Shown: positions 32,681 to 47,982, counted from the stretch's first letter. The stretch: DNA of 64,000 nucleotides from Cellulomonadaceae bacterium (GCA_031551755.1 JAVBNE010000006.1:56737-120736); one strand, 5' to 3'. The notes: a model not told the origin generated them from the sequence alone. Program-made: numbers and translations.

Positions 32681-33316
32681 GTGAGCGACTCCCCCGACCA
32701 CTACTTCACGTCCAAGGATCCTCAGGACCCGAGCGTGGATCGTGGCACCGTCCAGGTTCGCATCGCGGGCCGGGACGTCGAGGTGGAGACCGCCGCCGGG
32801 GTGTTCTCCCGCGGCCGGCTCGACCTGGGAACCCAGGTGTTGCTGCGGAAGGTGCCACAAATCCCGGCCTCCGCTCGCAACGTCCTCGATCTGGGTTGCG
32901 GCTGGGGGCCGATAGCCCTGACCATGGCGAGCCAATCACCGCAATCGACCGTCTGGGCGGTGGACGTCAACGAGCTGGCCCTCGATCTGACCCGGCGCAA
33001 CAGTGCGCGGCTGGGGCTCAGCAAGATCGAGGCCCGGCTGCCGGAGGATGTACCGGATGACGTGCGCTTCGACGCACTGTGGTCGAACCCACCCGTCCGG
33101 ATCGGGCGTACCGCGATGGACGTGATGCTGCTGCACTGGCTGCCGAGGCTCGCCCCGGGGGCGAGCGCCCATCTCGTCGTCCAGCACAATCTCGGCTCGG
33201 ACTCCCTGCTGCGCTGGCTGGGGAGCCGCCTGCCCACCGAGATGCCCGGGGTGACGGTCGGCAAGCTGGGCAGCGCCAAAGGCTACCGGGTACTCGTGGT
33301 GACAGCGGCGTCCTGA
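32681..33316 (+). CDS. class I SAM-dependent methyltransferase (RsmC/RlmG small-domain type)
   Basis: VLDLGCGWGPIAL SAM motif and the catalytic NPP motif (WSNPPVRIG). GTG 32681 is chosen as the start. The 3' end overlaps the convergent dapF by 34 nt. Confidence 0.65.
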   Translation: MSDSPDHYFTSKDPQDPSVDRGTVQVRIAGRDVEVETAAGVFSRGRLDLGTQVLLRKVPQIPASARNVLDLGCGWGPIALTMASQSPQSTVWAVDVNELALDLTRRNSARLGLSKIEARLPEDVPDDVRFDALWSNPPVRIGRTAMDVMLLHWLPRLAPGASAHLVVQHNLGSDSLLRWLGSRLPTEMPGVTVGKLGSAKGYRVLVVTAAS

Positions 33317-34293
33317 TCGGCCGGGGAGCCGGAGCCGCCGGCCGATCCGTGCGCCCGCGGCGCCCGTTCGACCACCCGAAACCCGTCTTCGGTCAGCTCA
33401 CATTCCCCGCTGAACACCAACTCGGCAGGACCGGACAACTCCACGCGTGGGCCGAAGACTTGCACTCGCAACGCGCCTCCAGGCACCTCCACATGCCAAG
33501 CGTCGGGAGCACCGTCGCCCCGCCATGCCCGGACGGCGAGCGCCGCCGCGCAGGCACCCGTGCCGCAGGAAGCTGTCTCCCCCACGCCGCGTTCGTGCAC
33601 CCGCATCCGCACCCGTCCCCAATGTCGGCCGTCGGTATCCACCGAGTCCGCCAACGGCACGACCGCCTCAACATTCGTACCCTCGGCCGGGACCGGCTCC
33701 ACGACGGGTGCTTGCCCCATGTCGACTGCGGCGAGCTCGTCCTCCGAGGACAGCACAAAGACGGTGTGCGGGTTGCCCATGTCGACCGACAGCGCCGGGC
33801 GCGGCACACCCTGGCGACCGGTCACGGCGACCATCGCGTCGTACCCCGCGGCCAGTGCCTGTTCACCACCCGGCAGTGACCAGTGACCCATGTCCACGGC
33901 GAACCAACCGTCTGGTTCCCGGCGCACTCGTTTGACGCCGGCCCGGGTGCCGAAAGCGACCGTCGTGTCACCGGCGAAGCTGACCAGCCCGGCGCGCTCC
34001 GCGAAGGCCGCGAAGACCCGTACCCCGTTCCCGCACATCTGCGCGACGGAACCGTCGGCATTGCGGTAGTCCATGAACCAGATGGCGTGCGGGTCCTCCG
34101 CGAGGATCATGTCGCTCTCCGCGACATCGGCCGTGGGCACCAACCGGATGACCCCGTCACCTCCGATGCCACCGCGGCGATCGGCCAATGCGCGCACCAG
34201 GACCGGGGTGAGGTCGAGTTCATTGCGGGTATCGGAGATCAGCACGAAATCGTTCTTCGTCCCGTGACCTTTGGTGAACCGCATCGGTGTCAT
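33283..34293 (-). CDS. dapF: diaminopimelate epimerase
   Basis: FTKGHGTKNDFVL, with the catalytic cysteines in MCGNGVR and SCGTGACAAA. It has an ATGA overlap with the miaA stop. Confidence 0.88.
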   Translation of the reverse strand: MTPMRFTKGHGTKNDFVLISDTRNELDLTPVLVRALADRRGGIGGDGVIRLVPTADVAESDMILAEDPHAIWFMDYRNADGSVAQMCGNGVRVFAAFAERAGLVSFAGDTTVAFGTRAGVKRVRREPDGWFAVDMGHWSLPGGEQALAAGYDAMVAVTGRQGVPRPALSVDMGNPHTVFVLSSEDELAAVDMGQAPVVEPVPAEGTNVEAVVPLADSVDTDGRHWGRVRMRVHERGVGETASCGTGACAAALAVRAWRGDGAPDAWHVEVPGGALRVQVFGPRVELSGPAELVFSGECELTEDGFRVVERAPRAHGSAGGSGSPADQDAAVTTSTR

Positions 34294-35258
34294 GAACCCA
34301 GACTACGGCGGACCGAAGCGGTCCCTTCCGGGTCGGGGTCCACGTCGGTGACCGCGGCCAGCGCATCGGCCACCAAGGTGGGCGACCGGGAATCGAGCCA
34401 TCGGATACGTGGATCACGACCGAACCACCCCATCTGCTTACGCGCCAGTCGCCGCGTGTTGGTGATGATGGCGGCCTTCGCTTCGTCGGCGCTGAGCTCA
34501 CCCGCGAAATGCGCCAGGATCTCCACGTAGCCGACGGCCCGGCGCGCGGTACGGCCCATGCCGCGCGCGGCCAGTGCACGGACTTCCTCAACGAGTCCCT
34601 GCGCCCACATGCTCTCCACCCGCTGCGCAACCCGAGCGTCGAGGGCGGCACGGTCGCAGTCGAGGCCGAGTTGGACGGTGGACCGGACGTACTTCATTTG
34701 CGGCAAGGTGGCGCTGAAAGGCCGGCCGGTGATCTCGATGACCTCCAAGGCCCGGACGATCCGGCGGGTATTGGCGGAGTCAATGCGCTCGGCAGCCGGC
34801 GGGTCGAGCTGGGCGAGGCGGGCATGCAGCACACCGGAACCCACCTGGTGTGCCTCGGCTTCGAGCGCCGCCCGCACGGTCGGTTCGGTACCGGGGAACT
34901 CCATCTCGTCGAGGAGGGCGCGGACGTACAGTCCCGATCCACCGACTACCACTGCCCGTCGCCCCCGGGCCGCGATCGCGGACAGGTCGTTGCGGGCGGA
35001 CTCCTGATACCGCGCCACGGATGCGTCCTGGGCGGGATCCAGGACGTCGATCTGATGATGGATCACCCCGTGGCGCGCCTCCAGATCCAGCTTCGCGGTG
35101 CCGATGTCCATCCCGCGGTAGAGCTGGAATGCGTCGGCATTGACGACCTCGGCCGGGCCGGGCATCTCCCCGGTGAGCACCTGGGCCAGGGCCACGGCGA
35201 GATCGGATTTCCCGGTCGCAGTCGGACCCACAATGGCGATCACTGGAAGGGTGTGCAC
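34290..35258 (-). CDS. miaA: tRNA dimethylallyltransferase
   Basis: IAIVGPTATGKSDLAV P-loop, HHQIDV, and RRLARKQMGWF. Confidence 0.9.
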   Translation of the reverse strand: MHTLPVIAIVGPTATGKSDLAVALAQVLTGEMPGPAEVVNADAFQLYRGMDIGTAKLDLEARHGVIHHQIDVLDPAQDASVARYQESARNDLSAIAARGRRAVVVGGSGLYVRALLDEMEFPGTEPTVRAALEAEAHQVGSGVLHARLAQLDPPAAERIDSANTRRIVRALEVIEITGRPFSATLPQMKYVRSTVQLGLDCDRAALDARVAQRVESMWAQGLVEEVRALAARGMGRTARRAVGYVEILAHFAGELSADEAKAAIITNTRRLARKQMGWFGRDPRIRWLDSRSPTLVADALAAVTDVDPDPEGTASVRRSLGS

Positions 35259-35275
35259 GCGACGAAGGTACCGGG

Positions 35276-35297
35276 TGTCGGCAGCCTCAACTAGGCT
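35276..35297 (+). promoter_or_regulatory. RecA-NDp / PafBC-type promoter-like motif
   Basis: TGTCGGCA-gcctcaac-TAGGCT fits tTGTCRgtg-N8-TAnnnT in the strongly conserved positions. It lies in the 70-nt miaA/ybjN-like spacer, about 32 nt upstream of ATG 35329. Confidence 0.4.
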
Positions 35298-35328
35298 GGC
35301 GGTTCCGCTTCATTCAACCGTAGGAGCC

Positions 35329-35844
35329 ATGATGGGATTCTTCGCCAAGCCTGAGGGTGCGCCGCTCACCAGCAACGCACCCCTGTCCAGAGACCGGATC
35401 GAGGCTTGCCTCAAGGCCCATGAATGGCACTACTCGATCGACTCCGACGGCGACATCGGCGGGATCTGGGACAATAAGATCTTCTACTTCTTCCTCATGG
35501 GCGAGAAGAAGGAAATCCTCCAGGTACGGGGTCGCTGGCACCGATCGTTGCCCGCCACTGCCGAGGCACAGATCATCGCAGCCACGAACGAGTTCAACCG
35601 CGACAAGATCTGGCCGAAGGCCTACACGCGCATCGAGGACGACAAACTCGGTGTCTACAGCGAGGTCTCCACAGACCTGGAGTACGGAGTCGCCGACGAC
35701 CAGCTCAGCCAGTTGATCGAGTGCGGCCTCTTCACCGGGCTGCGGTTCTTCGAGTTCCTCGACGAGAAGTTCCCGGAGACGGGCCTTGCGAGCGACCCCG
35801 CCACCGCGATCCCGCCGACCTCGCCCACCGGTCCAGCTTGGTGA
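35329..35844 (+). CDS. YbjN-like (type III secretion chaperone-fold) protein, paralogue 1
   Basis: 171 aa with an AGGAG RBS. It shares DSDGDIGGIW, EILQVRGRW, DKIWPKAYTR and DLEYGVADDQL blocks with the ORFs at 39900 and 40505. The family name comes from pattern memory. Confidence 0.55.
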   Translation: MMGFFAKPEGAPLTSNAPLSRDRIEACLKAHEWHYSIDSDGDIGGIWDNKIFYFFLMGEKKEILQVRGRWHRSLPATAEAQIIAATNEFNRDKIWPKAYTRIEDDKLGVYSEVSTDLEYGVADDQLSQLIECGLFTGLRFFEFLDEKFPETGLASDPATAIPPTSPTGPAW

Positions 35845-37715
35845 CCGACTCTACGGCCAGCTCCGACACCTTCCAGGTCGATCTTCGGGGCATCGTCGAT
35901 CTCCTCGCGCGGCACCTCTACTCCAGCCCGCGGGTCTATCTTCGCGAACTCCTGCAGAACGGCGTTGACGCGATCACCGCCCGCCGGGAGCTGGACAACG
36001 GGCCGGAGCACATCTTGCTCCGGCCGCTCACGGACGGCGGCCTGGAGGTCATCGACACCGGGGTGGGCCTGACGGTCACAGAGGCCCGCGAGTTGCTGGC
36101 CACGATCGGCCGCAGCTCGAAACGCGATGTCGAGTTTGGTCAGGGGCGCGAGGAGTTCCTCGGCCAGTTCGGCATCGGACTGCTGTCGGCGTTCATGGTG
36201 GCGGACGAGATCGAGTTGTTCTCCCGGTCGGCCCGGGTGACGGCCGAGGGCGCGCCGGAACCGATCCGTTGGCTGGGCTATGCCGACGGACGGTACGCGC
36301 TGACCACGTTGCCCGCGGACGACCCCGCCCTCGCGGGCCTGGACGGCCCCGGCTCGCTTGTGCGACTGCGGCCTCGCCGCGATCTGGAACACTGGCTCGC
36401 CCCCGAGACGGTCACGGCCCTCGCGCAGGATTTCGGCGGGCTACTGCCGGTCGATGTGTCGATCGAGGTCGCACTCGAGGACGGCAGGAAGCGCCGCCGG
36501 CGACTCTCCGTCGAGGAGTTGCCCTGGCGACGGGAGTACCCGGACGCCGAAGCACGCACTGTCGCGCTCACCGGCTACGCCGAGCGGACTCTCGGCATGA
36601 CTCCATTGGCTCATATCGATGTGAATCTGCCCCTCGCCGGACTGACCGGGGTCGCCTTCGTCCTGCCGGCCGCGGTGGCACCCACGACGACCGCACAACA
36701 TCGCGTTTACCTCAAACGGATGCTCCTGGGCACCCAAGTGACGGACCTTCTGCCACCTTGGGCATTCTTCGTCCGGTGTGTCATCGACACTTCCACCTTG
36801 CGCCCTACCGCCGCACGTGAAGGTCTCTACGAGGACGAGATCTTGCTGGCGACTCGCGATGCGCTCGGCGCACGCATCCGGCAATGGGTCCTGGACACGG
36901 TCAATGCGGACGGGTCGCTGGGTCGGCGGTTCGTAGCGACCCATCACTTGGCGCTCCGTGCGCTCGCACTCTTCGACGACGAACTTCTCGAACTCGCGGC
37001 CAGAGTGCTGCCGTATGAGACGACGGTCGGAGCACGCACCCTCACGGAGCTCCACGAGGCCTCCGATCGCCTGCTGTACACGACCACCGTGGAGGAGTAC
37101 CGGCGCATCGCCCCGGTCGCCGCGGCCCAAGGGCTGCCGGTGATCAACGGCGGATACGTCTACGACGCCGAGCTCCTCGAACGGGTCGCCCTACGGCACC
37201 CCGATTGGCGCCTGGTACCGGTCACAGCGGACGATGTCGCACAGGTCCTGACCGTCGTGGAACCGATGCGGGAGTTGGAGATCACCGACGCAGTCACCGC
37301 GCTGAACGAAACACTGGAGCCGCAGGACTGTGATGTCGCGGTCCGCCGGTTTGAGCCGGACGGTCTCGCCGCGATCATTCTGCACGACCGTGACGGCGAC
37401 CATGCCCGGGCCGCCCAGGCGACAGCGGCAGCCGTCGACGACCTGTGGGGTGAGGTCCTGGCGGGCCTGACAGGTCCGCCCCGCCCGCGGCAGCTGGTGC
37501 TCAACGACGCCAATGAGACGGTCCGGGCCCTTCTTGCGGCAACCGACCCTCCGGTGCGCGACGCCGGCGTGCGGTCGCTCTACGTCACCGCGTTGCTCGC
37601 CTCAGGCCACCAGCTCCACGCTCCCGAGGCGGCGTTGATGAACAGTTCCCTCGCCACACTGCTCGAACGCGCACTCACCCGGCCCGACGCCGGCGATCAA
37701 TCCGAAAGGCCCTGA
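35841..37715 (+). CDS. divergent HSP90/HtpG-like GHKL ATPase
   Basis: Bergerat-fold motifs in HtpG order and context: LYSSPRVYLRELLQNGVDA (ExxxNxxD), DTGVGLT (DxGxG) and GQFGIGLLSAFMVADE (GxxGxG). 624 aa counted from GTG 35841, which overlaps the preceding stop (GTGA). Confidence 0.7.
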   Translation: MTDSTASSDTFQVDLRGIVDLLARHLYSSPRVYLRELLQNGVDAITARRELDNGPEHILLRPLTDGGLEVIDTGVGLTVTEARELLATIGRSSKRDVEFGQGREEFLGQFGIGLLSAFMVADEIELFSRSARVTAEGAPEPIRWLGYADGRYALTTLPADDPALAGLDGPGSLVRLRPRRDLEHWLAPETVTALAQDFGGLLPVDVSIEVALEDGRKRRRRLSVEELPWRREYPDAEARTVALTGYAERTLGMTPLAHIDVNLPLAGLTGVAFVLPAAVAPTTTAQHRVYLKRMLLGTQVTDLLPPWAFFVRCVIDTSTLRPTAAREGLYEDEILLATRDALGARIRQWVLDTVNADGSLGRRFVATHHLALRALALFDDELLELAARVLPYETTVGARTLTELHEASDRLLYTTTVEEYRRIAPVAAAQGLPVINGGYVYDAELLERVALRHPDWRLVPVTADDVAQVLTVVEPMRELEITDAVTALNETLEPQDCDVAVRRFEPDGLAAIILHDRDGDHARAAQATAAAVDDLWGEVLAGLTGPPRPRQLVLNDANETVRALLAATDPPVRDAGVRSLYVTALLASGHQLHAPEAALMNSSLATLLERALTRPDAGDQSERP

Positions 37716-37718
37716 CCG

Positions 37719-39674
37719 ATGTCCCGATCCGTCTTAGAGGTCAACTCCGCTCTCTTCGGTCTCCGGCGGATGCCGTTCGGTCTGGCCCGCTCCACCGCCA
37801 CCGCCGCCGAGGTCGATCGGGTGCGGACAGAGGGGCCGGACGGGGCACGGGCCTTCGCGCTGATCTGTCTCGTCGAGGCGTATGTCTGGGGAGATGAAGT
37901 CTCCAAGGCCTACCTGCCGTTCACCGAACTCCTTCGGTGGTGGGACGAACACCCGGAGACCTTCGACGAAGAAGACACCCACGCGATGTTCTGGTCATTC
38001 AAATGGATGGTCAGCAACCTCATGGAGTTCTCCAGTGTGTCGGCGGAACAGATCGAGCGGACGCTCGAGGACATGCGGCGCCGGTTCGCAATCGCGGGGA
38101 ACGGCATGAACGCCGTCCGGCTCTGTGAGTTCCATTGGGCGTCACAACGCGGTGCCGATGGCGTCGAGGCCGCCTACCAAGCCTGGGTGAGCACTCCCCA
38201 CGACGACTACGCTCAATGCGCCGCCTGTGAACCTGGTGACCGCGCCGCATATCTGTTCGAGACCGGGCGCAACACCGAGGGAATCCGGCTGCTCGAGGCC
38301 ACGCTCGCCACGTCGCCGTCATGCGCGACCGAACCCGGCGACATGCTGTCCTACCTCCAGCTCGCCTACCTGGAAGAGGGCGAGGCGGCAAAGGCCGCCG
38401 CTACCCACCGACGGGCGATGCAGCAACTGAACACCGAGATCCCCATGGTGGGAGCACGCGCCCGGCATATCGAGTTCTGCGCCCGCTCCGGCAACTTCGC
38501 GCGGGCGCTGCGTCTCCTTCAGGAGAATGCACACCTGCTCACCACGACCGAGTCCCCCTACACCCGGTGGCAGTTCCTTCATCGCGTCGGGAGCGCCACC
38601 GCCATTCTGCGGCAAGCCGATCCCGGCACCATCGTCGCTCTTCCCGGCCACGACACGCGGACGATCGAGGAACTCGACGACTGGATCGCCTCCGAGGCGC
38701 TGAGCATCGCGGCCGACTTCGACCGTCGTGACGGCACGACCGCCACCACGGACCGCACCCATCGTCACCGGAAGCGCGCCTTGGAGAAGCGCTTACCGGT
38801 GGATCTCTCCCTTTTCGCCACGGGACTCTCCGAAGACCCGCTTGCCGATTCGCTCAGGACCGACGACACCAAGGGTGCCGCGAGTGCGGGCACCGAATCC
38901 GATGCTCCTGCTCTTTCCGCACATGCCTCGGCGCTCGTCACTCTCGGACACGCCGAGGCACTGGCCAACTCCGATCAGGCACAGGCAGCCATGCTCTACC
39001 ACGATGCCGCTGCCGCATTCGAGGCCGACGGTTATCTCGGCGACGCCGGTTTCGCGCTCGCCGAAGCGGCCGAACTCGCTGCCCGGGTGGGTGATCCTGA
39101 GACCGTCGCACTTTTCGATCGTGCTCTCGACCTGCTCTGGGCCGCAGATACCCCAGCCCCGCACATCGGCCCGGTCGCCCGCGCACGGGCGCGTCGGTCA
39201 GTCACCCCGGCAGATTTTGAGGCCGCACTGGCCGCCATCGACCGGGTCCAGGCAACCTGCACCGAGACGCCGATTGAAGGTATCCAGACGGCGACGCCGC
39301 TCCCGGATCTGGTTGCGCGCCAGGAGGCAGCGACAAGGGCCGAGTTCCGCGAACTAACCGATTCCAGAGCGCGAGTACTGGCTGAGCTCGGCCGCTACAC
39401 AGAGGCAGCGCGCACGGCCCAAGACGTCGCGGAGGAGTTCGCTCATGCAGGCGACGTCTCGAACGCCGCGCACGCCTTTCGTCTGGCAGGCAGCGCTTTC
39501 CTCGCCGATGGCGACACGCAGGCGGCCACCGAGCAATGGGAATCGTCGATCGAAGGCTTCGAGATCACCCGCAACACGGACATGCGGATCGCGGTGGGCA
39601 ATGAACTCCTCGCGCTCCTGCGGCGACTGGGCCGCACGGAAGAGGCAGCCGCACTGAGTGCCCGGCTGACCTGA
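37719..39674 (+). CDS. 651-aa alpha-helical repeat (TPR-like) protein of unknown function
   Basis: It starts 3 nt after the HtpG-like stop. The C-terminal third has repeated helix-hairpin-like A/L/E-rich units (e.g. AELGRYTEAARTAQDVAEEFAHAGD..., AFRLAGSAFLADGDTQAATEQWE...). It also has a CAAC motif. The fold assignment is by eye only. Confidence 0.45.
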   Translation: MSRSVLEVNSALFGLRRMPFGLARSTATAAEVDRVRTEGPDGARAFALICLVEAYVWGDEVSKAYLPFTELLRWWDEHPETFDEEDTHAMFWSFKWMVSNLMEFSSVSAEQIERTLEDMRRRFAIAGNGMNAVRLCEFHWASQRGADGVEAAYQAWVSTPHDDYAQCAACEPGDRAAYLFETGRNTEGIRLLEATLATSPSCATEPGDMLSYLQLAYLEEGEAAKAAATHRRAMQQLNTEIPMVGARARHIEFCARSGNFARALRLLQENAHLLTTTESPYTRWQFLHRVGSATAILRQADPGTIVALPGHDTRTIEELDDWIASEALSIAADFDRRDGTTATTDRTHRHRKRALEKRLPVDLSLFATGLSEDPLADSLRTDDTKGAASAGTESDAPALSAHASALVTLGHAEALANSDQAQAAMLYHDAAAAFEADGYLGDAGFALAEAAELAARVGDPETVALFDRALDLLWAADTPAPHIGPVARARARRSVTPADFEAALAAIDRVQATCTETPIEGIQTATPLPDLVARQEAATRAEFRELTDSRARVLAELGRYTEAARTAQDVAEEFAHAGDVSNAAHAFRLAGSAFLADGDTQAATEQWESSIEGFEITRNTDMRIAVGNELLALLRRLGRTEEAAALSARLT

Positions 39675-39899
39675 TAAGTCTCAGCCGCCCTTGTGGCCAC
39701 GCCACACGCATTGTCGACCGTCGGCCGCGACCGCCATCGGCGGGTGTCCCGGTGCGAGCCGTCTTCGCCGGTCCGGCTCCGACCACCGCGCCCACCGACG
39801 GCCCTCGGGCGGCGCGCATCTGGTGAACATCGGTACTCCGCCGAGTGAAATTCCCAAACAAGGGAGCGTTCTGCGATCGCGCCCGAGTACGGTGGGACA

Positions 39900-40508
39900 G
39901 TGAGGTACTTCGACGATCATCGGGAACCCCCCCGACCGGAGGAGCCAGAACCCGACGATGGCTCACCCGAATCTCGACCGACACCAGGAAGAGGGAGTCG
40001 CCGAGCAGCGGACGGTCAGCCCGGTCACATGCTCCTCGGTGATTTCACGGGTGCGGTCGCGATCGACACACGCCAAACGCCCGCACCCCTGAGCCTCGCT
40101 CGTGTGGTTGAGTGGACGGCCGATTGCGGGTATGCCTACTTCATCGACTCAGATGGCGACCTCGGCGGGCTGTGGCGTGGACGCCTCTTCTACTTCCTGC
40201 TCTTCGGCGCACAAGACGAGATCCTCCAAGTGCGCGGTCAATGGAACCGCGATCTAACCATCGAGCGCCTCGAGGAGATTCTCGAGTTCTGCAATGAATG
40301 GAATACAGACCGCATTTGGCCGAAAACGTATACGCGGGTGCGCGACAACGGGATGATCCAAGTCTTCACCGAGGTCACCGTCGACCTTGAACACGGCGTG
40401 ACCGATGATCAACTCGACCAGATGCTTCAATGCGGCCTGAGTACTGGATCGATGTTCTTCGACGCCCTCGACGAGTTCTATCCTGACCCCGCGAGGCAGG
40501 CGCCGTGA
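39900..40508 (+). CDS. YbjN-like protein, paralogue 2 (with a Pro/Glu/Arg-rich N-terminal tail)
   Basis: It has DSDGDLGGLW, EILQVRGQW, DRIWPKTYTR and DLEHGVTDDQL blocks, clearly paralogous to the ORFs at 35329 and 40505. Confidence 0.55.
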   Translation: MRYFDDHREPPRPEEPEPDDGSPESRPTPGRGSRRAADGQPGHMLLGDFTGAVAIDTRQTPAPLSLARVVEWTADCGYAYFIDSDGDLGGLWRGRLFYFLLFGAQDEILQVRGQWNRDLTIERLEEILEFCNEWNTDRIWPKTYTRVRDNGMIQVFTEVTVDLEHGVTDDQLDQMLQCGLSTGSMFFDALDEFYPDPARQAP

Positions 40509-41017
40509 GCCCGACCCGAGCAAGTTGGCTCGCTCGTCTTCTTTTCGGGAACCGTCGGGTCAAGGTCGACGCACCGTCCACGGTAGCCGAAGCCGTCAGC
40601 CCCTTGACCATGGATCGGGTCGGCGACCACTTGCGCCGACGGGGGTATCACTTCCGCGTCGACGAGGACGGCGACATCACCGGCACTTGGGACGGGCACC
40701 GGTTCTGGTTCCTACTCCTCGGAGCGCACCACGAGATCCTGCAGATCCGTGGACGGTGGTCGACCCGATTGCCGACCACTGCCCGGTTGGCGGTACTCCA
40801 GGCCGTGAACGACTGGAACCGTGAACGCATCTGGCCGAAGGTCTATACCCGGGAGGAGGGCGACGGACTGACGGTGTGCAGCGAAGTCTCGGTCGACTTC
40901 GAACATGGGGCTACCGACGCTCAACTCGGCCAAGTCCTTTCCTGCGGGCTCGGCACAGCGATCCAGCTCTTTCAGAGCATCACTGCCCAGCTGCCCCCGG
41001 ATATCGAAGGACACTAG
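40505..41017 (+). CDS. YbjN-like protein, paralogue 3
   Basis: It has DEDGDITGTW, EILQIRGRW, ERIWPKVYTR and DFEHGATDAQL blocks. Its GTG start overlaps the paralogue 2 stop (GTGA). Confidence 0.55.
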   Translation: MSPTRASWLARLLFGNRRVKVDAPSTVAEAVSPLTMDRVGDHLRRRGYHFRVDEDGDITGTWDGHRFWFLLLGAHHEILQIRGRWSTRLPTTARLAVLQAVNDWNRERIWPKVYTREEGDGLTVCSEVSVDFEHGATDAQLGQVLSCGLGTAIQLFQSITAQLPPDIEGH

Positions 41018-41099
41018 GTCTCGGCCGTTCCGGGGTCCGCACGGCGGATGGAGGGCGGGTGACAGCACCCTTCTTCGATGACCGCGCGCCAACCCGCCC

Positions 41100-42650
41100 T
41101 CAGCGCCGCAGCGTGGGGAGCCCGAGTTGAACTGGACCGCCGGCTCCCGCACCGTGTTCATGGGCGTGCGGTTCCGCCGAGAGCCCCTGCGCCACCGCCC
41201 AGGCATCCCCCGCCCTCGTCGGCCGCACCGTGAAGAGTCCGCCGGTCAACGCAGAGTCGGCGATCAGATGATGAGACCCCGCCGATGTCACCTGAACCGT
41301 CACAAGATCCCCCGGTCGTGGCCCGGGTGCCCGGCCGGCGGCCGCATCCGACGGCAGGGCCAGGTGAACAAGGCGGTTATCGGGAGCACGACCAGTCAGG
41401 CGGTTGGTCGCGCCATCCTTGCGACCGCCGCCGTCGACCACCATCACCTCAACGACGTCCCCCACGAGGCGCGCAGACTCCTCGGCGGTGATTCGTTCCT
41501 GTAGCGCCAGCAGACGGTCGAACCGCTCCTGCACGATTTCCTTGGGAAGCTGATCAGGCATTTCCGCCGCCGGGGTGCCAGGACGCGGCGAATACTGAAA
41601 GAGGAACGCCGAGGAAAATCGTGACTGGGCGACCATTCGCATGGTGTCCTGAAAATCCTCTTCGGTCTCGCCGGGGAATCCAACGATGATATCCGAGGTG
41701 ATGGCTACAGCTGGGATCGCCGCGCGCACGCGATTGACGATGTCGAGGAAACGCGTCGTCCGATAGGAGCGTCGCATCGCACGCAGGACGCGATCCGACC
41801 CGGATTGCAGCGGCATGTGAAGCGACGGCATGACGTTAGCGGTCTCGCTCATCGCAGCGATGACATCGTCAGTGAATGCGGCGGGATGCGGTGAGGTGAA
41901 TCGGACTCGCTCCAACCCCTCGATTTCACCGCAGGCACGAAGGAGCTTGCTGAAGGCGCCTCGGTCGCCGAACTCCACGCCGTAGCTATTCACGTTCTGG
42001 CCGAGCAGGGTCACTTCGATCGCACCGGCGTCAACGAGGGCGCTGATCTCCGCCAGGATCTCTCCCGGTCGGCGGTCGCGCTCCTTGCCCCGGAGCGACG
42101 GCACAATGCAGAAGGTGCAGGTGTTGTTGCATCCGACGCTGATGGAGACCCAGCCCGCGTAGACGCTGTCCCGGCGAGTGGGCAAGGTCGAGGGGAAGAC
42201 CTGAAGTGATTCGGCGATCTCCACCTGTGCCGCCGAGTTGTGCCGGGCACGGGCCAGCAGCACCGGAAGCGCGTCGAGGTTGTGGGTACCGAAGACGACG
42301 TCAACCCAGGGAGCCTTGCGGAGAATCTCGCCGCGATCCTTCTGGGCGAGGCACCCCCCGACAGCGATCTGCATCCCAGGCCGTTGTGCCTTAATGGAGG
42401 CCAACTGGCCCAAGTTGCCGTAGAGACGGTTGGCCGCGTTCTCACGGACCGCACAGGTGTTGATGACGACGACATCGGCCTGGCTGGACGCGTCCGCTGA
42501 TGCTGCGGCGCGCACATATCCGGCCTGTTCCAGAAGACCTGCCATGTGTTCGGAGTCATGCACATTCATTTGGCAGCCGAGGGTGCGCACCAGGTAGGTA
42601 CGTGGGTCTGACAGTGGGGAGGGCTGAGCCTGAGTGATCGTCGACATCAC
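41100..42650 (-). CDS. miaB: tRNA-2-methylthio-N6-dimethylallyladenosine synthase
   Basis: UPF0004 N-terminal domain ([12 protein letters not shown]), a radical-SAM CNNTCTFC cluster motif and a TRAM C-terminal domain. 516 aa. Confidence 0.92.
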
Positions 42651-42682
42651 CGTCCAGGGTACGGCCAGAGCGGGTTCAGCCC

Positions 42683-43234
42683 CTACTGCGGGGCGTCCTC
42701 GAGCACTAGTTCCCGCTGCACGACCTCGAAGGCCAGCGACGGCGGATAGCCCTTACGGGCCAGCGCACCCACTGCTCGCCGGAGACGCACCTCTGTCTCT
42801 AGCCCGCGGGTTCGCGCCAACCGTGTGCGCGCCACCGCGCGAGCTGCCTCACTCTCGGACTCTTCACCGATCTCTGCGAGCGCCTGAGAGGCGATCTCAT
42901 CATCGATTCCACGGCGGCGCAGCTCCTGGGCAATTGCCAGCCGAGACAGGCCACGATCGGCCTGCCCGCTTCGCACGACCGATGCTGCGAACTCAATGTC
43001 ATTGAGCAGACCGACTGCTTCAAAACGGTCCAGAAGCGGCTCCACGATGCACTCGGGATACCCCCTCCGCAGGAGAGTGTGCGACACCTGCGAACGGCTG
43101 CGCCGCGCAGCTGTCAGACTGCGCAGCGCCACCTCGCGGGCACGCTCGACGAGTTCTTCTGCGGAGATCTCACCAGATTCGATGAGTTCTGGAACAGTCC
43201 GACGCCGCTTGGAGGGTGTGGGAGGACTACTCAT
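42683..43234 (-). CDS. recX: recombination regulator RecX
   Basis: Three-repeat helical RecX pattern (...[18 protein letters not shown]...[15 protein letters not shown]...[15 protein letters not shown]). The start is chosen at ATG 43234, 13 nt after the recA stop. The 304-aa track ORF runs into recA. Confidence 0.85.
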
Positions 43235-43247
43235 CGGCCCAGGACCC

Positions 43248-44423
43248 TCAGAACGGCGCCTTCTTCGCCCTGGAGGCAGCCTTGGTCGCGGGTGTTTTGG
43301 CGGTGACTCCAGCCGACGCCGACTCGGCGGCACTAACCGAACCAGCCTTGGCAGCCGCGGCGGCGACCGACTCCGCCTCAGCCACGACGGCCGACGAATC
43401 AGCTCCGTCCGCTGTCGATGGACCGACGCCGAGCTTTTCCTTGATCCGTCGCTCGAGCTCGTTCGCCAAGTCCGGGTTGTCCCGCAAGAAGGACCTCGCA
43501 TTCTCCTTGCCCTGACCGAGCTGGTCGCCCTCGTAGGTGAACCAGGACCCGGATTTGCGGACGAAGCCGTGCTCGACTCCCATATCGATGAGTCCACCTT
43601 CGCGCGAGATGCCGACTCCGTATAAGATGTCGAACTCGGCCTGCTTGAAAGGCGGGGCCATCTTGTTCTTCACGACCTTGACTCGGGTCCGGTTACCGAC
43701 AGGCTCCGTCCCTTCCTTCAAAGTCTCGATACGACGTATGTCGAGCCGAACAGAGGCGTAGAACTTCAGCGCCTTCCCACCCGTGGTGGTCTCGGGCGAG
43801 CCGAAAAACACACCGATCTTCTCCCGGAGCTGGTTGATGAAGATCGCCGTCGTACCGGATTGGCTCAGAGCGCCAGTGATCTTGCGCAGCGCTTGGGACA
43901 TCAGCCGGGCCTGGAGACCGACGTGGCTATCACCCATCTCGCCCTCGATCTCTGCTTTGGGCACCAGTGCGGCGACGGAGTCGATCACGATGATGTCCAG
44001 AGCTCCCGAGCGAATCAACATGTCGGCGATCTCCAGCGCCTGCTCACCGGTGTCCGGCTGGGAAACAAGTAGGGCGTCGGTGTCCACGCCCAGTTTCTTG
44101 GCGTACTCCGGGTCCAGGGCATGTTCGGCATCGATGAACGCCGCGATACCGCCCGCGCGCTGGGCGCTGGCCACAGCATGAAGCGCGACGGTCGTCTTAC
44201 CACTGGATTCCGGACCGTAGACCTCAACGACCCGCCCACGCGGCAGTCCCCCGATGCCGAGCGCCACATCGAGTGCGATCGAGCCGGTAGGAATCACGTC
44301 GACCGGGACCCGGCCCTCCTCACCGAGCCGCATGACGGATCCCTTGCCGAAATTCCGGTCGATCTGGGCAAGAGCTGCTTCGAGTGCCTTCTCGCGGTCA
44401 GCGGGTGCGGGCATGGTCGTCAC
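43248..44423 (-). CDS. recA: recombinase RecA
   Basis: Canonical RecA ([43 protein letters not shown]) with no intein. The likely true start is ATG 44414 ([11 protein letters not shown]), behind GAAGG. It carries a 50-60 aa Ala/Ser-rich C-terminal tail. Confidence 0.97.
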
Positions 44424-44509
44424 CTTCGTTCATGGGGCGCGCATCGCGCCACCGAGCAGATGGCCGAGAGGACTCGGCCCTTCGGTTATTCGATGTGTGG
44501 TCGAGAGCG

Positions 44510-44532
44510 ACACTACGATCCGCCACCGACAA
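44510..44532 (-). promoter_or_regulatory. RecA-NDp / PafBC-type promoter upstream of recA
   Basis: The minus strand reads TTGTCGGTG-gcggatcg-TAGTGT, an exact fit to tTGTCRgtg-N8-TAnnnT. It lies about 85-110 nt upstream of the recA start. Confidence 0.65.
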
Positions 44533-44595
44533 GACGATCTGCGATCACCGCCACTGTGGACGAGCCCGTGAGCGGAGCTGCTGTGGACACTCTAG

Positions 44596-44611
44596 CCGAA
44601 CACCTGTTCGA
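44596..44611. promoter_or_regulatory. LexA SOS box upstream of recA
   Basis: CCGAACACCTGTTCGA has one mismatch to TCGAAC-N4-GTTCGA. It lies distal to the RecA-NDp-type element. Confidence 0.7.
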
Positions 44612-44730
44612 TCGAGTCCCGTCTTCGGCGTGTCGGTCGGATCGGGCTGCGGAAGCATCATCGCCCAGGGTCATCCCGGACATAGCCGCACTGGGCACGC
44701 CACGAACGCAATTGCGGTCCCGGTACAAGT

Positions 44731-44767
44731 CCATGGGGTCGACGGGAAGAACCCGTCGACCCCATGG
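44731..44767 (-). terminator. strong hairpin terminator after the surface-protein gene
   Basis: A perfect 16-bp inverted repeat CCATGGGGTCGACGGG-aagaa-CCCGTCGACCCCATGG, 24 nt downstream of the TAG at 44791-44793. There is no T-tract, which is common in actinobacteria. Confidence 0.7.
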
Positions 44768-44790
44768 GAGCTCTACCGCTCAGGAACGTG

Positions 44791-47700
44791 CTAGTCCTGC
44801 GTGCGTCGGCGGACGATGAACGCCCCGACACCGAGGACCACCAAGAGGAACGCAGCTCCCCCGGCCGCCAGGGCGTTCGCCCCCGTGTGGGCCAAGACCC
44901 GCGCGACCTTGGACGATGGCCGACCGCGGTCGGCCGGATCGGTTGACGACAGCGCGTCGGCGGAATCAGTCGGCCCGGTCGGGTCATCAGTCGGATTGAC
45001 CGGTCCTTCCCCTTGGACCTCGAAGGCGGCCGTCACCTTGTTGTTGGCCTGATCGGGGTCCGGGTAGTCCCCACTGATAGTGGCCGTGACCGAGACCTTC
45101 TGGCCCACCAACGAGCTGTCTGCTAAGAGGGTGATCGGCAAGATGTCATCAGCCCCCGAGGCCAGCACACCAACCGCTTCACAGTCGATCTCCTGGCCGG
45201 AGACGATGCAGCTCCAATCACCTGGGTCTTCCCCGCCATCGACCACGGCAGCCGTGACACCCACCGGAAGTGTCACACGAACCTTGGCCGGGGCGTTGCT
45301 GGGACCTTTGTTCTGCGCACGCATTCCAAGCGACCGAGCAGTGTCCACCACCAGCTCGCCGCCCGGCAGGGTGACCGCCAGGTCCGCCTGTGCAACCTGA
45401 ACAGTCGCGAACCCGGGCTCAGCCACCACCACGGCTCCGGTATCGGCTCGCTTCACGGCGAAGGCCACAGAGTTCGATGCCAGGTAACCCCCCGGGGCAT
45501 CGGCCGGGATGCTCATCGGCCAGCTCGTCGAGCTGGTATCCCCGGGCCGCAGGACTCCGCCATCCTGCTGGACGAACTTGAGCGCCTTGACCGCACCAAA
45601 GTCCGCTGGCGACTTGGTCCAGTTGTCATCACAACCCTGCAGACCGGGGTACACCTCGGGGCGGCACGGGTTGTTGGAGACGGAGTACCAGACGTCGAAT
45701 CCCTTGAGGGCTGGGACCGTCCCGGTCAATATCGGAGCGAACCGCGAATTGCGTCGGATCGCCGCGGCCGCCTTGCTCACACCCGTATCACCCACATGCG
45801 GGAAGATGTCGTAGACGACCATGTCGCTCAGGTCGATGTTGCCGGTGTTCTCGATCGGCAACCGGTAAGCGATCGGCTGACCCACCGCGGTCGCGCCCGT
45901 CTGGGGTGCCGTGACGAAGTCCGCGTCCAGTGAACCCTCAACTTCCAACTGCGAGGAGACGCCCACACCCGAGCCGGTCTGGACCGTCGCCATCGCCCGC
46001 GCCAACGTTCCGCCGACCTTCCCGTCAGCATCAAGGTCGCGGTCGTCACGCACCCGCTGGGTCCAGGTATTGGCGTTCGCAGAATCGTTGGAGTATGCGG
46101 AGTTGGAGACATCATACGGATACTCGGGGATCGGCCCACGCGCATCACCCAGATAGACGCGCGCCGTCAACGCGCCGGCCGGGGCCGTTGTCACCACCGT
46201 GCGCACCGCCAACTCCAGCTGAGAGTTCAACTCGGCGTTCTCCGGCCAAGAGATGACTAGGACGTCCTGCTCAAGCGAATCGTTGTGCACCACCCGGGTG
46301 GTCGGCTTCTCAAAGCTGACCGGGGCCGGCTGCCACTGCGCACCGACGGTCACCGGCTCCTTGGCCAGCTTGGTGCCCTTGGGGATCGGAAAGTACACCA
46401 CCGGACGCAGAGTCTCATTGCCCAACATGTCGGCGTTCATGAGGCTGATCTTCCAGAGCAGATCCTCCCCCGGCTTGGGAGCGGTCTGGGAGGACGAGTA
46501 CAACCAGACGCTGGGAACTGGAAGAGGATCGATGACGGTGAACCGCGCAGTGTCACTCAGGGCGATGTCGTCGAAGCCGTCTGCCGAATAGGTCACGTCG
46601 GCCGTCACGGAGACAGTTGCACGATCTGCACCGTCGATGACACCACTGACTCCATTGCCGCCTTGACCCGGCCCGTCGATCCCCGGACCAACGATCGTCA
46701 GATGCGCCACATGTGCCCCTCGGGGGACTCCCATCTGGACAAGCGTCGCTTTGGGGGACTCGTCCTCGCTATCGGGCGCCGGGTAGTCGGCCGTCGAGAA
46801 CCTCCCGGTCACGCCGTCATCCGTACGCCAGCTGACAGTCGAGTCGCCCTGCGGGGGCTTTCCCACAGCGGTGGCGGTGAACTCTGCGGGCAGGTCCACC
46901 TCGGTCACCGTCTTCGTCACCCGAACCGTGCTGTTGAAATTATTCAAGCCCAAGCCGACGCCCACAGCGGCGCCCCGGGCAACCCACGCATGCGCCGCCG
47001 TATCGGCGGTGACATAGTTGCTCCCGGGTGTGACCTGCAGACCCGGGCGGAAAACTGACTTGAATGCCGTCGGCGCCAAGGTTGCTCGGGCTGTAGTGCT
47101 GATCGCCGAGCCACCTACGCTTGTTCCAGAGAACGCGAAGGGGACATCGACGGAGCGACCACTTGTGAAGTTCGCCGCCGGGAATTTCACCACCATTTGG
47201 ACACCGCGGCTGTAATATCCGGCGCCCACCTGCCCCGGAATGGAGTCCCAGGAGACCTTGGTGCCGTCGGCCGACACGGAAGACTGCGCAGGATCAGCAG
47301 AGACGAAGACGGCGCCTGCGGGAAGCGTCGCCATGACCCCGAGGTCCCCGATCCCCTCTTTGCCCGTAATCCCCCAGACGCTGGCTGACGCGGTGGAGCT
47401 GATCACCGCCTCCCGATCCAAATAGACCGGGTACTGCCCCTGGGCGGAGGCCGACAACCCTGCCGGTGTCGCCGTCAGCGTCACCGAAACCGAAGTCGAG
47501 GTGGGATCGCTGTTCGCACCGGATGCATTCGCCGTCACCACCAGCTTGGTGCCGCCAGCGATCGGGCCATTGTCCGTGAGGTAGTGCACCCCAATAGTCC
47601 CGCTCGACCCCGCCGGGAGCTTTTCGGCGAACGTGAACTGTACCGACTTATCCGAATTGACACTTACCGAAGTGACATCCTTGGATGTTGTCGCCACCGG

Positions 47701-47982
47701 TTGCCCACCCGACGGTGACCATTCGTCAAAGAGTCCGGCCGGACGTGGTAGGCCGATCACGACACCTGAGCAAGCCACCGCACTCGAACACGAGTAGGCG
47801 ATCTCGACATCAACCGGTTCCCCCGTCTGCACCGCGTCGTGCGAGCTGGTCATGGTGATCGTGAAGGCTGCGGCAGCCGCGGCGGCGGGCTGGGCACCCA
47901 ACACCATCCCGCCACCGAGAGACATAGCGGTCAGCACAAGCGCGAACCGTGCAAAAACGCGTTGACGTACTTTGTTCTCCAT
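44791..47982 (-). CDS. large sortase-anchored (LAHTG) surface protein with DUF11-type repeat domains
   Basis: 1063 aa. It has a signal peptide (ARFALVLTAMSLGGGMVLGAQPAAA). Its C-terminus is LAHTG, then a hydrophobic helix, then RRRTQD. It carries DUF11-like segments (IAYRLPIENTGNIDLSDMVVYD..., ...DYPDPDQANNKVTAAFEV). Confidence 0.75.
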   Translation of the reverse strand: MENKVRQRVFARFALVLTAMSLGGGMVLGAQPAAAAAAAFTITMTSSHDAVQTGEPVDVEIAYSCSSAVACSGVVIGLPRPAGLFDEWSPSGGQPVATTSKDVTSVSVNSDKSVQFTFAEKLPAGSSGTIGVHYLTDNGPIAGGTKLVVTANASGANSDPTSTSVSVTLTATPAGLSASAQGQYPVYLDREAVISSTASASVWGITGKEGIGDLGVMATLPAGAVFVSADPAQSSVSADGTKVSWDSIPGQVGAGYYSRGVQMVVKFPAANFTSGRSVDVPFAFSGTSVGGSAISTTARATLAPTAFKSVFRPGLQVTPGSNYVTADTAAHAWVARGAAVGVGLGLNNFNSTVRVTKTVTEVDLPAEFTATAVGKPPQGDSTVSWRTDDGVTGRFSTADYPAPDSEDESPKATLVQMGVPRGAHVAHLTIVGPGIDGPGQGGNGVSGVIDGADRATVSVTADVTYSADGFDDIALSDTARFTVIDPLPVPSVWLYSSSQTAPKPGEDLLWKISLMNADMLGNETLRPVVYFPIPKGTKLAKEPVTVGAQWQPAPVSFEKPTTRVVHNDSLEQDVLVISWPENAELNSQLELAVRTVVTTAPAGALTARVYLGDARGPIPEYPYDVSNSAYSNDSANANTWTQRVRDDRDLDADGKVGGTLARAMATVQTGSGVGVSSQLEVEGSLDADFVTAPQTGATAVGQPIAYRLPIENTGNIDLSDMVVYDIFPHVGDTGVSKAAAAIRRNSRFAPILTGTVPALKGFDVWYSVSNNPCRPEVYPGLQGCDDNWTKSPADFGAVKALKFVQQDGGVLRPGDTSSTSWPMSIPADAPGGYLASNSVAFAVKRADTGAVVVAEPGFATVQVAQADLAVTLPGGELVVDTARSLGMRAQNKGPSNAPAKVRVTLPVGVTAAVVDGGEDPGDWSCIVSGQEIDCEAVGVLASGADDILPITLLADSSLVGQKVSVTATISGDYPDPDQANNKVTAAFEVQGEGPVNPTDDPTGPTDSADALSSTDPADRGRPSSKVARVLAHTGANALAAGGAAFLLVVLGVGAFIVRRRTQD

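Follow-up and report, generated by a model that had tools for sequence, protein, structure and literature searches.

An HSP90-family operon with a damage-type promoter motif and a separate YbjN gene pair between miaA and miaB in a Cellulomonadaceae bacterium

Five plus-strand genes lie between miaA and miaB in a stretch of 64,000 nucleotides (nt) from a Cellulomonadaceae bacterium (GCA_031551755.1 JAVBNE010000006.1:56737-120736), which is called the window below and whose positions are counted from its first letter. They encode an HSP90-family ATPase, here named HSP90C, a helical protein referred to as its partner, and three YbjN-family proteins (YbjN1, YbjN2 and YbjN3). A preliminary description, made from the sequence alone, had treated all five genes as a single module and as a possible HSP90-type chaperone machine with its own cofactors. 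It turned out that this "five-gene module" is two units side by side, ybjN1-hsp90C-partner and ybjN2-ybjN3. With moderate confidence, we read the first unit (35276-39674, promoter motif included) as a damage-linked HSP90 machine, and the second (39900-41017) as an adjacent but separable pair whose products probably form a heterodimer. The features are as follows.

35329-35844, plus strand: YbjN1, 171 amino acids (aa), YbjN family, opens the HSP90 operon; AGGAG ribosome-binding site at 35322-35326
35841-37715, plus strand: HSP90C, HSP90-family ATPase, 624 aa; start overlaps the YbjN1 stop
37719-39674, plus strand: partner protein, predicted all-alpha TPR-like solenoid, 651 aa; begins 3 nt past the HSP90C stop
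39675-39899, no strand: intergenic gap between the first unit (unit A) and the second (unit B), 225 bp, no open reading frame (ORF)
39900-40508, plus strand: YbjN2, 202 aa, first of the coupled YbjN pair; orthologue group P1
40505-41017, plus strand: YbjN3, 170 aa, second of the pair; orthologue group P2
34290-35258, minus strand: miaA, left flank of the five-gene stretch
41100-42650, minus strand: miaB, right flank of the five-gene stretch
43248-44423, minus strand: recA, in the same window

The junctions were read directly. The GTG of hsp90C at 35841 overlaps the TGA of ybjN1 at 35842-35844 (GTGA), the TGA of hsp90C (37713-37715) is followed by ccg and the ATG of the partner gene (37719-37721), and the GTG of ybjN3 at 40505 overlaps the TGA of ybjN2 at 40506-40508, again as GTGA. 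Between genes 3 and 4 lies the untranslated gap of 225 bp, so that tight coupling does not extend through all five genes. In this gap we found no terminator-like site, no sigma-70-like site, no Rfam family and no RecA-NDp or SOS-box match, and its predicted folding is no better than that of shuffles (z = -0.34). Across 33000-46000, a search for terminators, sigma-70 promoters, structured RNAs and Rfam families found none.

For the distribution of these genes, we searched all six-frame ORFs of the surveyed loci with profiles for HSP90C, the partner and YbjN; one genome per species was scanned, and the HSP90C loci examined were the best 80 among at least 589 matches. They belong to Cellulosimicrobium, Cellulomonas, Sanguibacter, Isoptericola, Leucobacter, Microbacterium, Rothia and Arcanobacterium, and further to Propionibacteriaceae, Bifidobacteriaceae, Nocardia, Amycolatopsis, Pseudonocardia, Actinomadura, Micromonosporaceae and Streptomyces. 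In 82 of 83 loci a partner orthologue (E-values from 1e-23 to 1e-287) lies directly downstream of HSP90C on the same strand, and in the lone exception the contig ends there. This linkage spans Micrococcales, Propionibacteriales, Actinomycetales, Mycobacteriales, Pseudonocardiales, Streptosporangiales, Micromonosporales and Streptomyces, and the identity of the HSP90C-partner pair follows taxonomy, at 70% in Cellulosimicrobium, 60% in Cellulomonas and 47% in Streptomyces. In 44 loci a YbjN gene accompanies HSP90C and partner, and in 39 there is none. In 39 loci from Micrococcales and Actinomycetales it immediately precedes HSP90C, in 5 loci of Propionibacteriaceae it immediately follows the partner, and these two gene orders argue that the association itself is under selection. 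In Streptomyces-, Nocardia- and Actinomadura-type loci, HSP90C and partner are the only conserved neighbours; a search for further ones in the Streptomyces-type loci gave only antisense shadow ORFs. The core is a two-gene HSP90C-partner unit, with YbjN as a lineage-specific third gene.

The YbjN2-YbjN3 pair follows a distribution of its own. In one Promicromonospora locus (L085), in Xylanimonas cellulosilytica (L086) and in a Cellulomonas fimi-like genome (L087), a coupled YbjN-YbjN pair occupies the place between miaA and miaB without HSP90C or partner. Conversely, 22 loci have the YbjN-HSP90C-partner operon, with YbjN only upstream, and no pair inside 10 kb, and HSP90C and partner occur in the 39 loci that have no YbjN gene at all. 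The pair adjoins the operon in 16 loci. It is divergent relative to the operon in several Cellulomonas loci, that of C. gilvus among them, and in Sanguibacter an unrelated gene stands between pair and operon. Because each unit occurs alone, their orientation varies and a gene may intervene, the two are separate units, and it is the pair that resides in the miaA-miaB slot of Cellulomonadaceae and Promicromonosporaceae. In three other Promicromonospora loci (L055, L068, L078), HSP90C and partner lie away from miaA-miaB, without YbjN, are about 47% identical and Streptomyces-like, and carry a strict RecA-NDp motif at -48. Since the YbjN pair is kept in the slot of Promicromonospora while a Streptomyces-like HSP90C-partner pair sits elsewhere, the operon appears to have been replaced or transferred within Promicromonosporaceae.

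Overall, the preliminary description is partly supported. The five ORFs, the motifs quoted for them and their GTGA and 3-nt junctions were confirmed by ORF and junction reading, profile and structure tests (below) bear out the assignment of the proteins to YbjN, HSP90 and helical repeats, and the content of the miaA-miaB slot differs between genera, as it had supposed. The co-occurrence of these genes across Actinobacteria, for which it had suggested a survey, holds for the ATPase and the helical-repeat protein, whose link is near-invariant across the phylum, and for a YbjN gene in 44 loci. It does not hold for the YbjN2-YbjN3 pair, and a single five-gene module is not supported.

The evidence for a damage link of the operon lies in its promoter region, where a motif of the RecA-NDp/PafBC type ends 31 nt before the YbjN1 ATG.

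35276-35297, plus strand: RecA-NDp/PafBC-type promoter motif TGTCGGCAGCCTCAACTAGGCT, with -26 element TGTCGG, N10 and -10 element TAGGCT, in the 70-bp miaA-ybjN1 spacer
44510-44531, minus strand: RecA-NDp motif TGTCGGTGGCGGATCGTAGTGT upstream of recA, taken as internal control

The consensus, reportedly that of Gamulin et al. 2004, was used in the strict form TGTCRG, N10, TAnnnT, with 9 scored positions. The whole window holds two strict matches, at ybjN1 and at recA, against 0.26 expected. The same motif was found upstream of recA in five other loci (L001, L012, L030, L086, L087), and its presence at recA implies that a LexA-independent damage regulon is presumably operating in the window organism. 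Promoter P1 of recA is the reference PafBC-dependent promoter (PMC11804915, PMC8223512). RecA-NDp is the promoter of PafBC, which is activated by single-stranded DNA (ssDNA), and is found across Actinobacteria (PMC6789036, PMC8223512, PMC11804915, PMC5087735); PafBC recognises the -26 element through sigma adaptation (PMC11804915).

Upstream of the HSP90C operon, the strict motif (9/9) is present in 14 of 82 loci and an 8/9 match in 9 more, giving at least 8/9 in 23 of 82. Dinucleotide shuffles of the same 82 upstream regions gave a mean per set of 0.04 strict matches and 1.25 at 8/9 or better, and in random 280-nt windows of the same loci the rates were 0.1% strict and 2.5% at 8/9 or better (0.1% plus 2.4% at exactly 8). 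The motif-positive loci come from Cellulomonas, Sanguibacter, Isoptericola, Leucobacter, Microbacterium, Propionibacteriaceae and Promicromonospora, together with two Streptomyces loci. The damage-type promoter to which the preliminary description had pointed is thus present at 35276-35297 and enriched in orthologous loci. Upstream of the YbjN pair, 17 of 19 regions have no RecA-NDp motif and a strict one is found only in C. gilvus; neither an SOS box (TCGAAC-N4-GTTCGA) nor RecA-NDp was found there in the window and in most loci.

For HSP90C, we compared the protein with NCBIfam profiles. The named but uncharacterised equivalog NF010683, "HSP90 family protein", gives 719 bits (cut-off 455; residues 6-615 to positions 3-599 of 604), and the HtpG equivalog NF003555 only 123 bits, below the cut-off of 371, yet the HtpG alignment is colinear in a single stretch (residues 9-598 to profile positions 3-606 of 614). 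Because of these scores and this alignment, HSP90C is, by profile comparison, a full-length HSP90 paralogue distinct from ordinary HtpG; that the ATPase is an ordinary HtpG, one part of a refuting condition in the preliminary description, is excluded by the NF003555 score. The motifs LRELLQNGVDA, DTGVGLT and GQFGIGLLSAF are all present in the 624-aa protein. RELLQNGVDA, DTGVGLT and GQFGIGLLSAF align to RELISNGSDA, DTGVGMN and GQFGVGFYSAF of TRAP1, and these Bergerat motifs are invariant in a 12-sequence alignment of the HSP90C family. In the middle domain, PTAsREgLYED aligns to NLSRELLQE of TRAP1, with R326 and E327 invariant in the same alignment, and the 12-member family profile matches TRAP1 and HtpG structures with an E-value of 1e-38. 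Profile alignment therefore recovers a Bergerat-fold N-domain, a middle domain with the catalytic Arg, and colinearity over the full length including the C-terminal dimerisation domain. The catalytic apparatus (catalytic Glu, Mg-binding Asn, DxGxG, the G-rich lid motif GQFGIG and the middle-domain Arg) is intact in sequence, and ATPase and chaperone activity are predicted.

These features bear on two other readings of the ATPase. HSP90C could be a GHKL clamp acting on DNA or repair intermediates, like MutL, MORC or topoisomerase, with the promoter reflecting a direct role in repair. The RecA-NDp promoter and a weak N-domain likeness to GHKL restriction and defence proteins fit this reading, but the homology to HtpG is full-length (residues 9-598) and includes the HSP90-specific middle-domain Arg motif, the restriction-enzyme and TmtA matches are limited to about 120 residues of the shared Bergerat fold (E-values 1e-5 to 1e-3), and none of the five proteins shows a nuclease or DNA-binding domain. 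We regard it as very unlikely. An anti-phage or conflict system of a GHKL ATPase with a TPR sensor seems extremely unlikely to us. Pairs of GHKL and repeat proteins do occur in conflict systems, and PADLOC gave weak matches to REase_II and TmtA; however, these are confined to the N-domain, the pair is a near-universal syntenic core whose identity follows taxonomy, and no effector domain, mobile-element sign or compositional anomaly was seen.

PADLOC, run on the five proteins, matched the N-domain of the ATPase only (E-values 9e-6 to 7.5e-4) and none of the other four, so the defence-system reading was rejected. At the window locus there is no mobile-element sign or compositional anomaly.

The C-terminal tails of HSP90C orthologues are short, variable in length and acidic, often ending in ...QEDx (for instance ...PDETQEDV in L010 and ...PQEDTP in L035; the tail of the window protein is encoded at 37690-37715). 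A conserved anchor of the EEVD/MEEVD type was sought in these tails and none was established. The ...QEDx pattern recalls the eukaryotic MEEVD, but the codons for it fall on the partner gene's Shine-Dalgarno sequence, and the tails are therefore not interpretable as an anchor; the pattern may reflect a constraint at the nucleotide level, and we do not count it as evidence. The sole trace of this paralogue that we found in the literature is a remark that S. coelicolor has two HTPG copies of different groups, in a study that does not discuss partners (Chen et al. 2006; PMC1525184).

The 651-aa partner has no Pfam or NCBIfam match. Its AlphaFold2 model, with a 54-sequence alignment as input, is all-alpha with 31 helices (pLDDT 92.6, pTM 0.89) and consists of an N-domain (1-360), a disordered linker (368-392) and a C-domain (400-651). 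Foldseek with this model returned the TPR superhelices of LGN/Pins, Ski3, APC subunits and OGT (E-values about 1e-6, probability 1.0), and long orthologues from Streptomyces, Nocardia and an Actinomycetales metagenome-assembled genome exceed the Pfam TPR_12 cut-off (34.6 and 58.6 bits against 30.1). Because of these matches, the earlier label "helical-repeat protein" is correct and, on the modelled fold, TPR-like is the better name. A PDB sequence search with the partner profile gave only marginal TPR-like matches, the best being Acl4 and alpha-SNAP (E-values 4e-4 to 0.01). The family is large, with at least 744 clusters at 50% identity matching the profile at E-values of 1e-30 or lower, and the proteins of Streptomyces, Nocardia and Actinomadura reach about 900-1000 aa and carry additional TPRs at the C-terminal end.

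No known family is assigned to the N-domain (about 360 aa). It holds three cysteines, C167, C170 and C202 (QCxxCEPGD...C; C167-x2-C170), kept in 79-80 of 82 orthologues, and other near-invariant residues in the same set are G21, D76, P79, W92, K95, M119, R122, W156, P206, F334, D335 and R337. A fourth conserved metal ligand was not seen, H88 being present in only 48 of 82 orthologues. The cysteines and the conserved N-domain residues suggest a putative metal- or redox-active site. An alternative reading makes the partner a dedicated client or output of HSP90C and not its cofactor, such as a metal- or redox-dependent scaffold that needs the ATPase for its assembly or switching. The cysteine cluster and invariant residues point to an activity or ligand site of the partner's own, strict one-to-one adjacency fits chaperone-client and chaperone-cofactor pairs equally, and the partner varies from about 650 to about 1000 aa through its C-terminal TPRs. 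Against this, TPR solenoids are typically binding platforms, and Pfam, NCBIfam and PDB profile searches detected no enzymatic domain in the partner. In our judgement the client reading is unlikely.

Beside these orthologues, a second full-length partner paralogue is encoded at 16778-18901 of L027, a Propionibacteriaceae metagenome-assembled genome, about 3 kb downstream of its HSP90C-partner-YbjN operon; a second HSP90C does not occur in its vicinity.

The three small proteins are paralogues, as had been described; they are mutually 46-49% identical with 49 invariant columns, among which are the blocks quoted earlier. All three match Pfam YbjN PF10722, with E-values of 1.4e-26 for YbjN1, 4.1e-29 for YbjN2 and 1.6e-26 for YbjN3 and scores of 93-102 bits against a cut-off of 22. 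A PDB sequence search with a profile of the three found nothing. The AlphaFold2 model of YbjN3 (pLDDT 89.6) has its best structural match in E. coli YbjN (6vu7; template modelling (TM) score 0.80), together with Erwinia AmyR (5fr7) and D. radiodurans DR_1245 (4h5b), at TM 0.7-0.8, while its identity to these solved members of the fold is about 10-16%. The next matches are class I chaperones of type III secretion systems (T3SS), including the heterodimer SycN-YscB. YbjN2 and YbjN3 probably form a heterodimer. In a neighbour-joining tree, the P1 (YbjN2) orthologues make one clade and the P2 (YbjN3) orthologues another, and both are nested inside a grade of HSP90-linked YbjN proteins. This nesting suggests that a duplication of the YbjN gene of the operon, in the Cellulomonadaceae/Promicromonosporaceae lineage, gave rise to the pair.

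A rival reading, that of the preliminary description, is that all five genes make one machine, in which a YbjN2-YbjN3 heterodimer would be a further adaptor of the HSP90C-partner complex. Paralogy of the three proteins, the nesting of both pair clades in the HSP90-linked grade, the adjacency of pair and operon in 16 loci and the strict RecA-NDp motif at the C. gilvus pair all favour it. Against it stand the pairs without nearby HSP90C or partner in Promicromonospora, Xylanimonas and the C. fimi-like genome, the 22 loci with YbjN-HSP90C-partner and no pair within 10 kb, the 225-bp gap, variable orientation and intervening genes, and the 17 of 19 regions upstream of the pair that have no motif. 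We consider a single machine unlikely.

For the two-unit reading that we favour, the following mechanism can be proposed. Upon DNA damage, ssDNA would let PafBC drive ybjN1-hsp90C-partner, together with recA, from one translationally coupled transcript, so that the operon would be inducible. The products may form a physical complex, in which HSP90C would supply an ATP-driven clamp and the partner would be its obligate cofactor, either an adaptor or a co-chaperone, whose cysteine cluster possibly senses metal or redox state. YbjN1 would be the lineage-specific third component, a holdase fold of the secretion-chaperone type that may hold or deliver substrate, in the way that the fold serves secretion substrates and DR1245 serves DdrB (PMC3575483). 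The clients of this machine would be a small set of damage-response proteins, which it might mature, remodel or protect. The YbjN2-YbjN3 heterodimer would form the second unit and persist where the first sits elsewhere. A more specific version, in which HSP90C, the three-cysteine TPR-like partner and the YbjN holdase make a three-part Actinomycetota HSP90 machine that PafBC switches on with recA and in which a metal or redox switch at the cysteines gates client loading, is tentative, and we hold it to be somewhat doubtful.

Several points weigh against the favoured reading. The surveyed loci are a non-random sample, several of the motif-positive ones are close relatives and hence not independent, and the motif at 8/9 or better is found in only about 28% of loci, few of them from Streptomyces or Nocardia. 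The rarity in Streptomyces loci matches the report that RecA-NDp is not conserved in S. venezuelae (PMC9380542), and for these two reasons damage control of the operon may be lineage-specific. The YbjN tree carries no support values, and the partner may be a client of HSP90C instead of its cofactor.

Some further features of the slot and its surroundings were observed. A hypothetical protein of 190-280 aa with no Pfam match recurs beside miaA or the YbjN pair in relatives and is absent from the window's slot. Its positions are as follows.

L001, 9997-10572, minus strand: recurring hypothetical protein
L085, 7690-8292, minus strand: recurring hypothetical protein
L086, 7707-8282, minus strand: recurring hypothetical protein
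L087, 7522-8343, minus strand: recurring hypothetical protein
L003, 9916-10758, plus strand: recurring hypothetical protein

The slot of C. gilvus contains an additional 916-aa protein without Pfam matches. In the window, next to the recA promoter region, the minus strand of 44791-47982 encodes a protein of 1063 aa that combines a signal-like segment at its N-terminus, repeats of DUF11 and DUF7507 and, at its C-terminus, a sorting signal of the form LAHTG-hydrophobic-RRRTQD; it is probably a sortase-anchored surface protein. The longest ORF of recX (42683-43597, minus strand, 304 aa) overlaps the recA 3' end by about 350 nt; because the RecX domains start only at residue 153, either the true start lies further downstream or RecX has a long N-terminal extension.

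In comparison with known systems, HSP90C resembles E. coli HtpG and mitochondrial TRAP1 in that it has the full-length HSP90 architecture in about 620 aa, lacks a charged linker and carries the catalytic Glu and Asn together with DTGVG, GQFGIG and the Arg of the middle domain. It differs from HtpG in scoring far under the HtpG equivalog cut-off (123 against 371 bits) and in belonging to the separate equivalog NF010683, and also in being encoded with a TPR-like partner (82 of 83 loci) and often with a YbjN protein. We know of no dedicated cofactors or co-chaperones established for HtpG, and the elaborate TPR cofactor network of HSP90 is treated as a eukaryotic invention. The HSP90C-partner pair is like eukaryotic HSP90 with its TPR co-chaperones (Hop/Sti1, PP5, CHIP, Tah1, SGT1) in that an HSP90 ATPase is paired with a protein of TPR fold, and the cysteine cluster recalls Cys/His-rich HSP90 cofactors such as the Zn-binding CHORD co-chaperones, by analogy only. 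Unlike in these eukaryotic systems, the partner shows no sequence homology to TPR or CHORD co-chaperones in the PDB sequence search, HSP90C has no conserved C-terminal MEEVD, and the association is known here from gene linkage; the partner is TPR-like by its predicted fold, and a role like that of the eukaryotic EEVD-clamp co-chaperones is an analogy only. Should the complex form, HSP90C would be the first HSP90 of a bacterium to have a cofactor set of its own, and on the three-part reading these cofactors would be genuine co-chaperones. The complex would also offer a simple bacterial model of cofactor-controlled HSP90 function and a role for the large uncharacterised partner family.

The three YbjN proteins share Pfam PF10722 and, as predicted, the fold (TM 0.72-0.80) with YbjN, AmyR and DR1245. 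Here there are three paralogues, of which one lies in an operon with an HSP90 while the other two make up a coupled pair, a linkage unreported for YbjN, AmyR and DR1245. The YbjN fold is that of class I T3SS chaperones (PMC5398634), and DR1245 binds the damage-induced SSB-like protein DdrB in Deinococcus (PMC3575483), which gives a precedent for the fold in damage responses. The gene-module boundary has to be corrected, and ybjN1-hsp90C-partner and ybjN2-ybjN3 should be treated as separate units.

The HSP90 family name is already in NCBI annotation, and in the literature we found no description of the HSP90C-partner-YbjN linkage or of a damage-type promoter on this operon. As in the mycobacterial RecA-NDp/PafBC regulon, the same bipartite promoter is found here at the operon and at recA. 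In the literature on described PafBC regulons we did not find an HSP90-family gene, whereas one is present behind the motif here. The PafBC-type promoter leads to the testable hypothesis that the LexA-independent damage response of actinobacteria includes a specialised chaperone. If true, this would directly link HSP90-type chaperoning to the bacterial DNA damage response, with relevance to mutagenesis and stress survival across actinobacteria.

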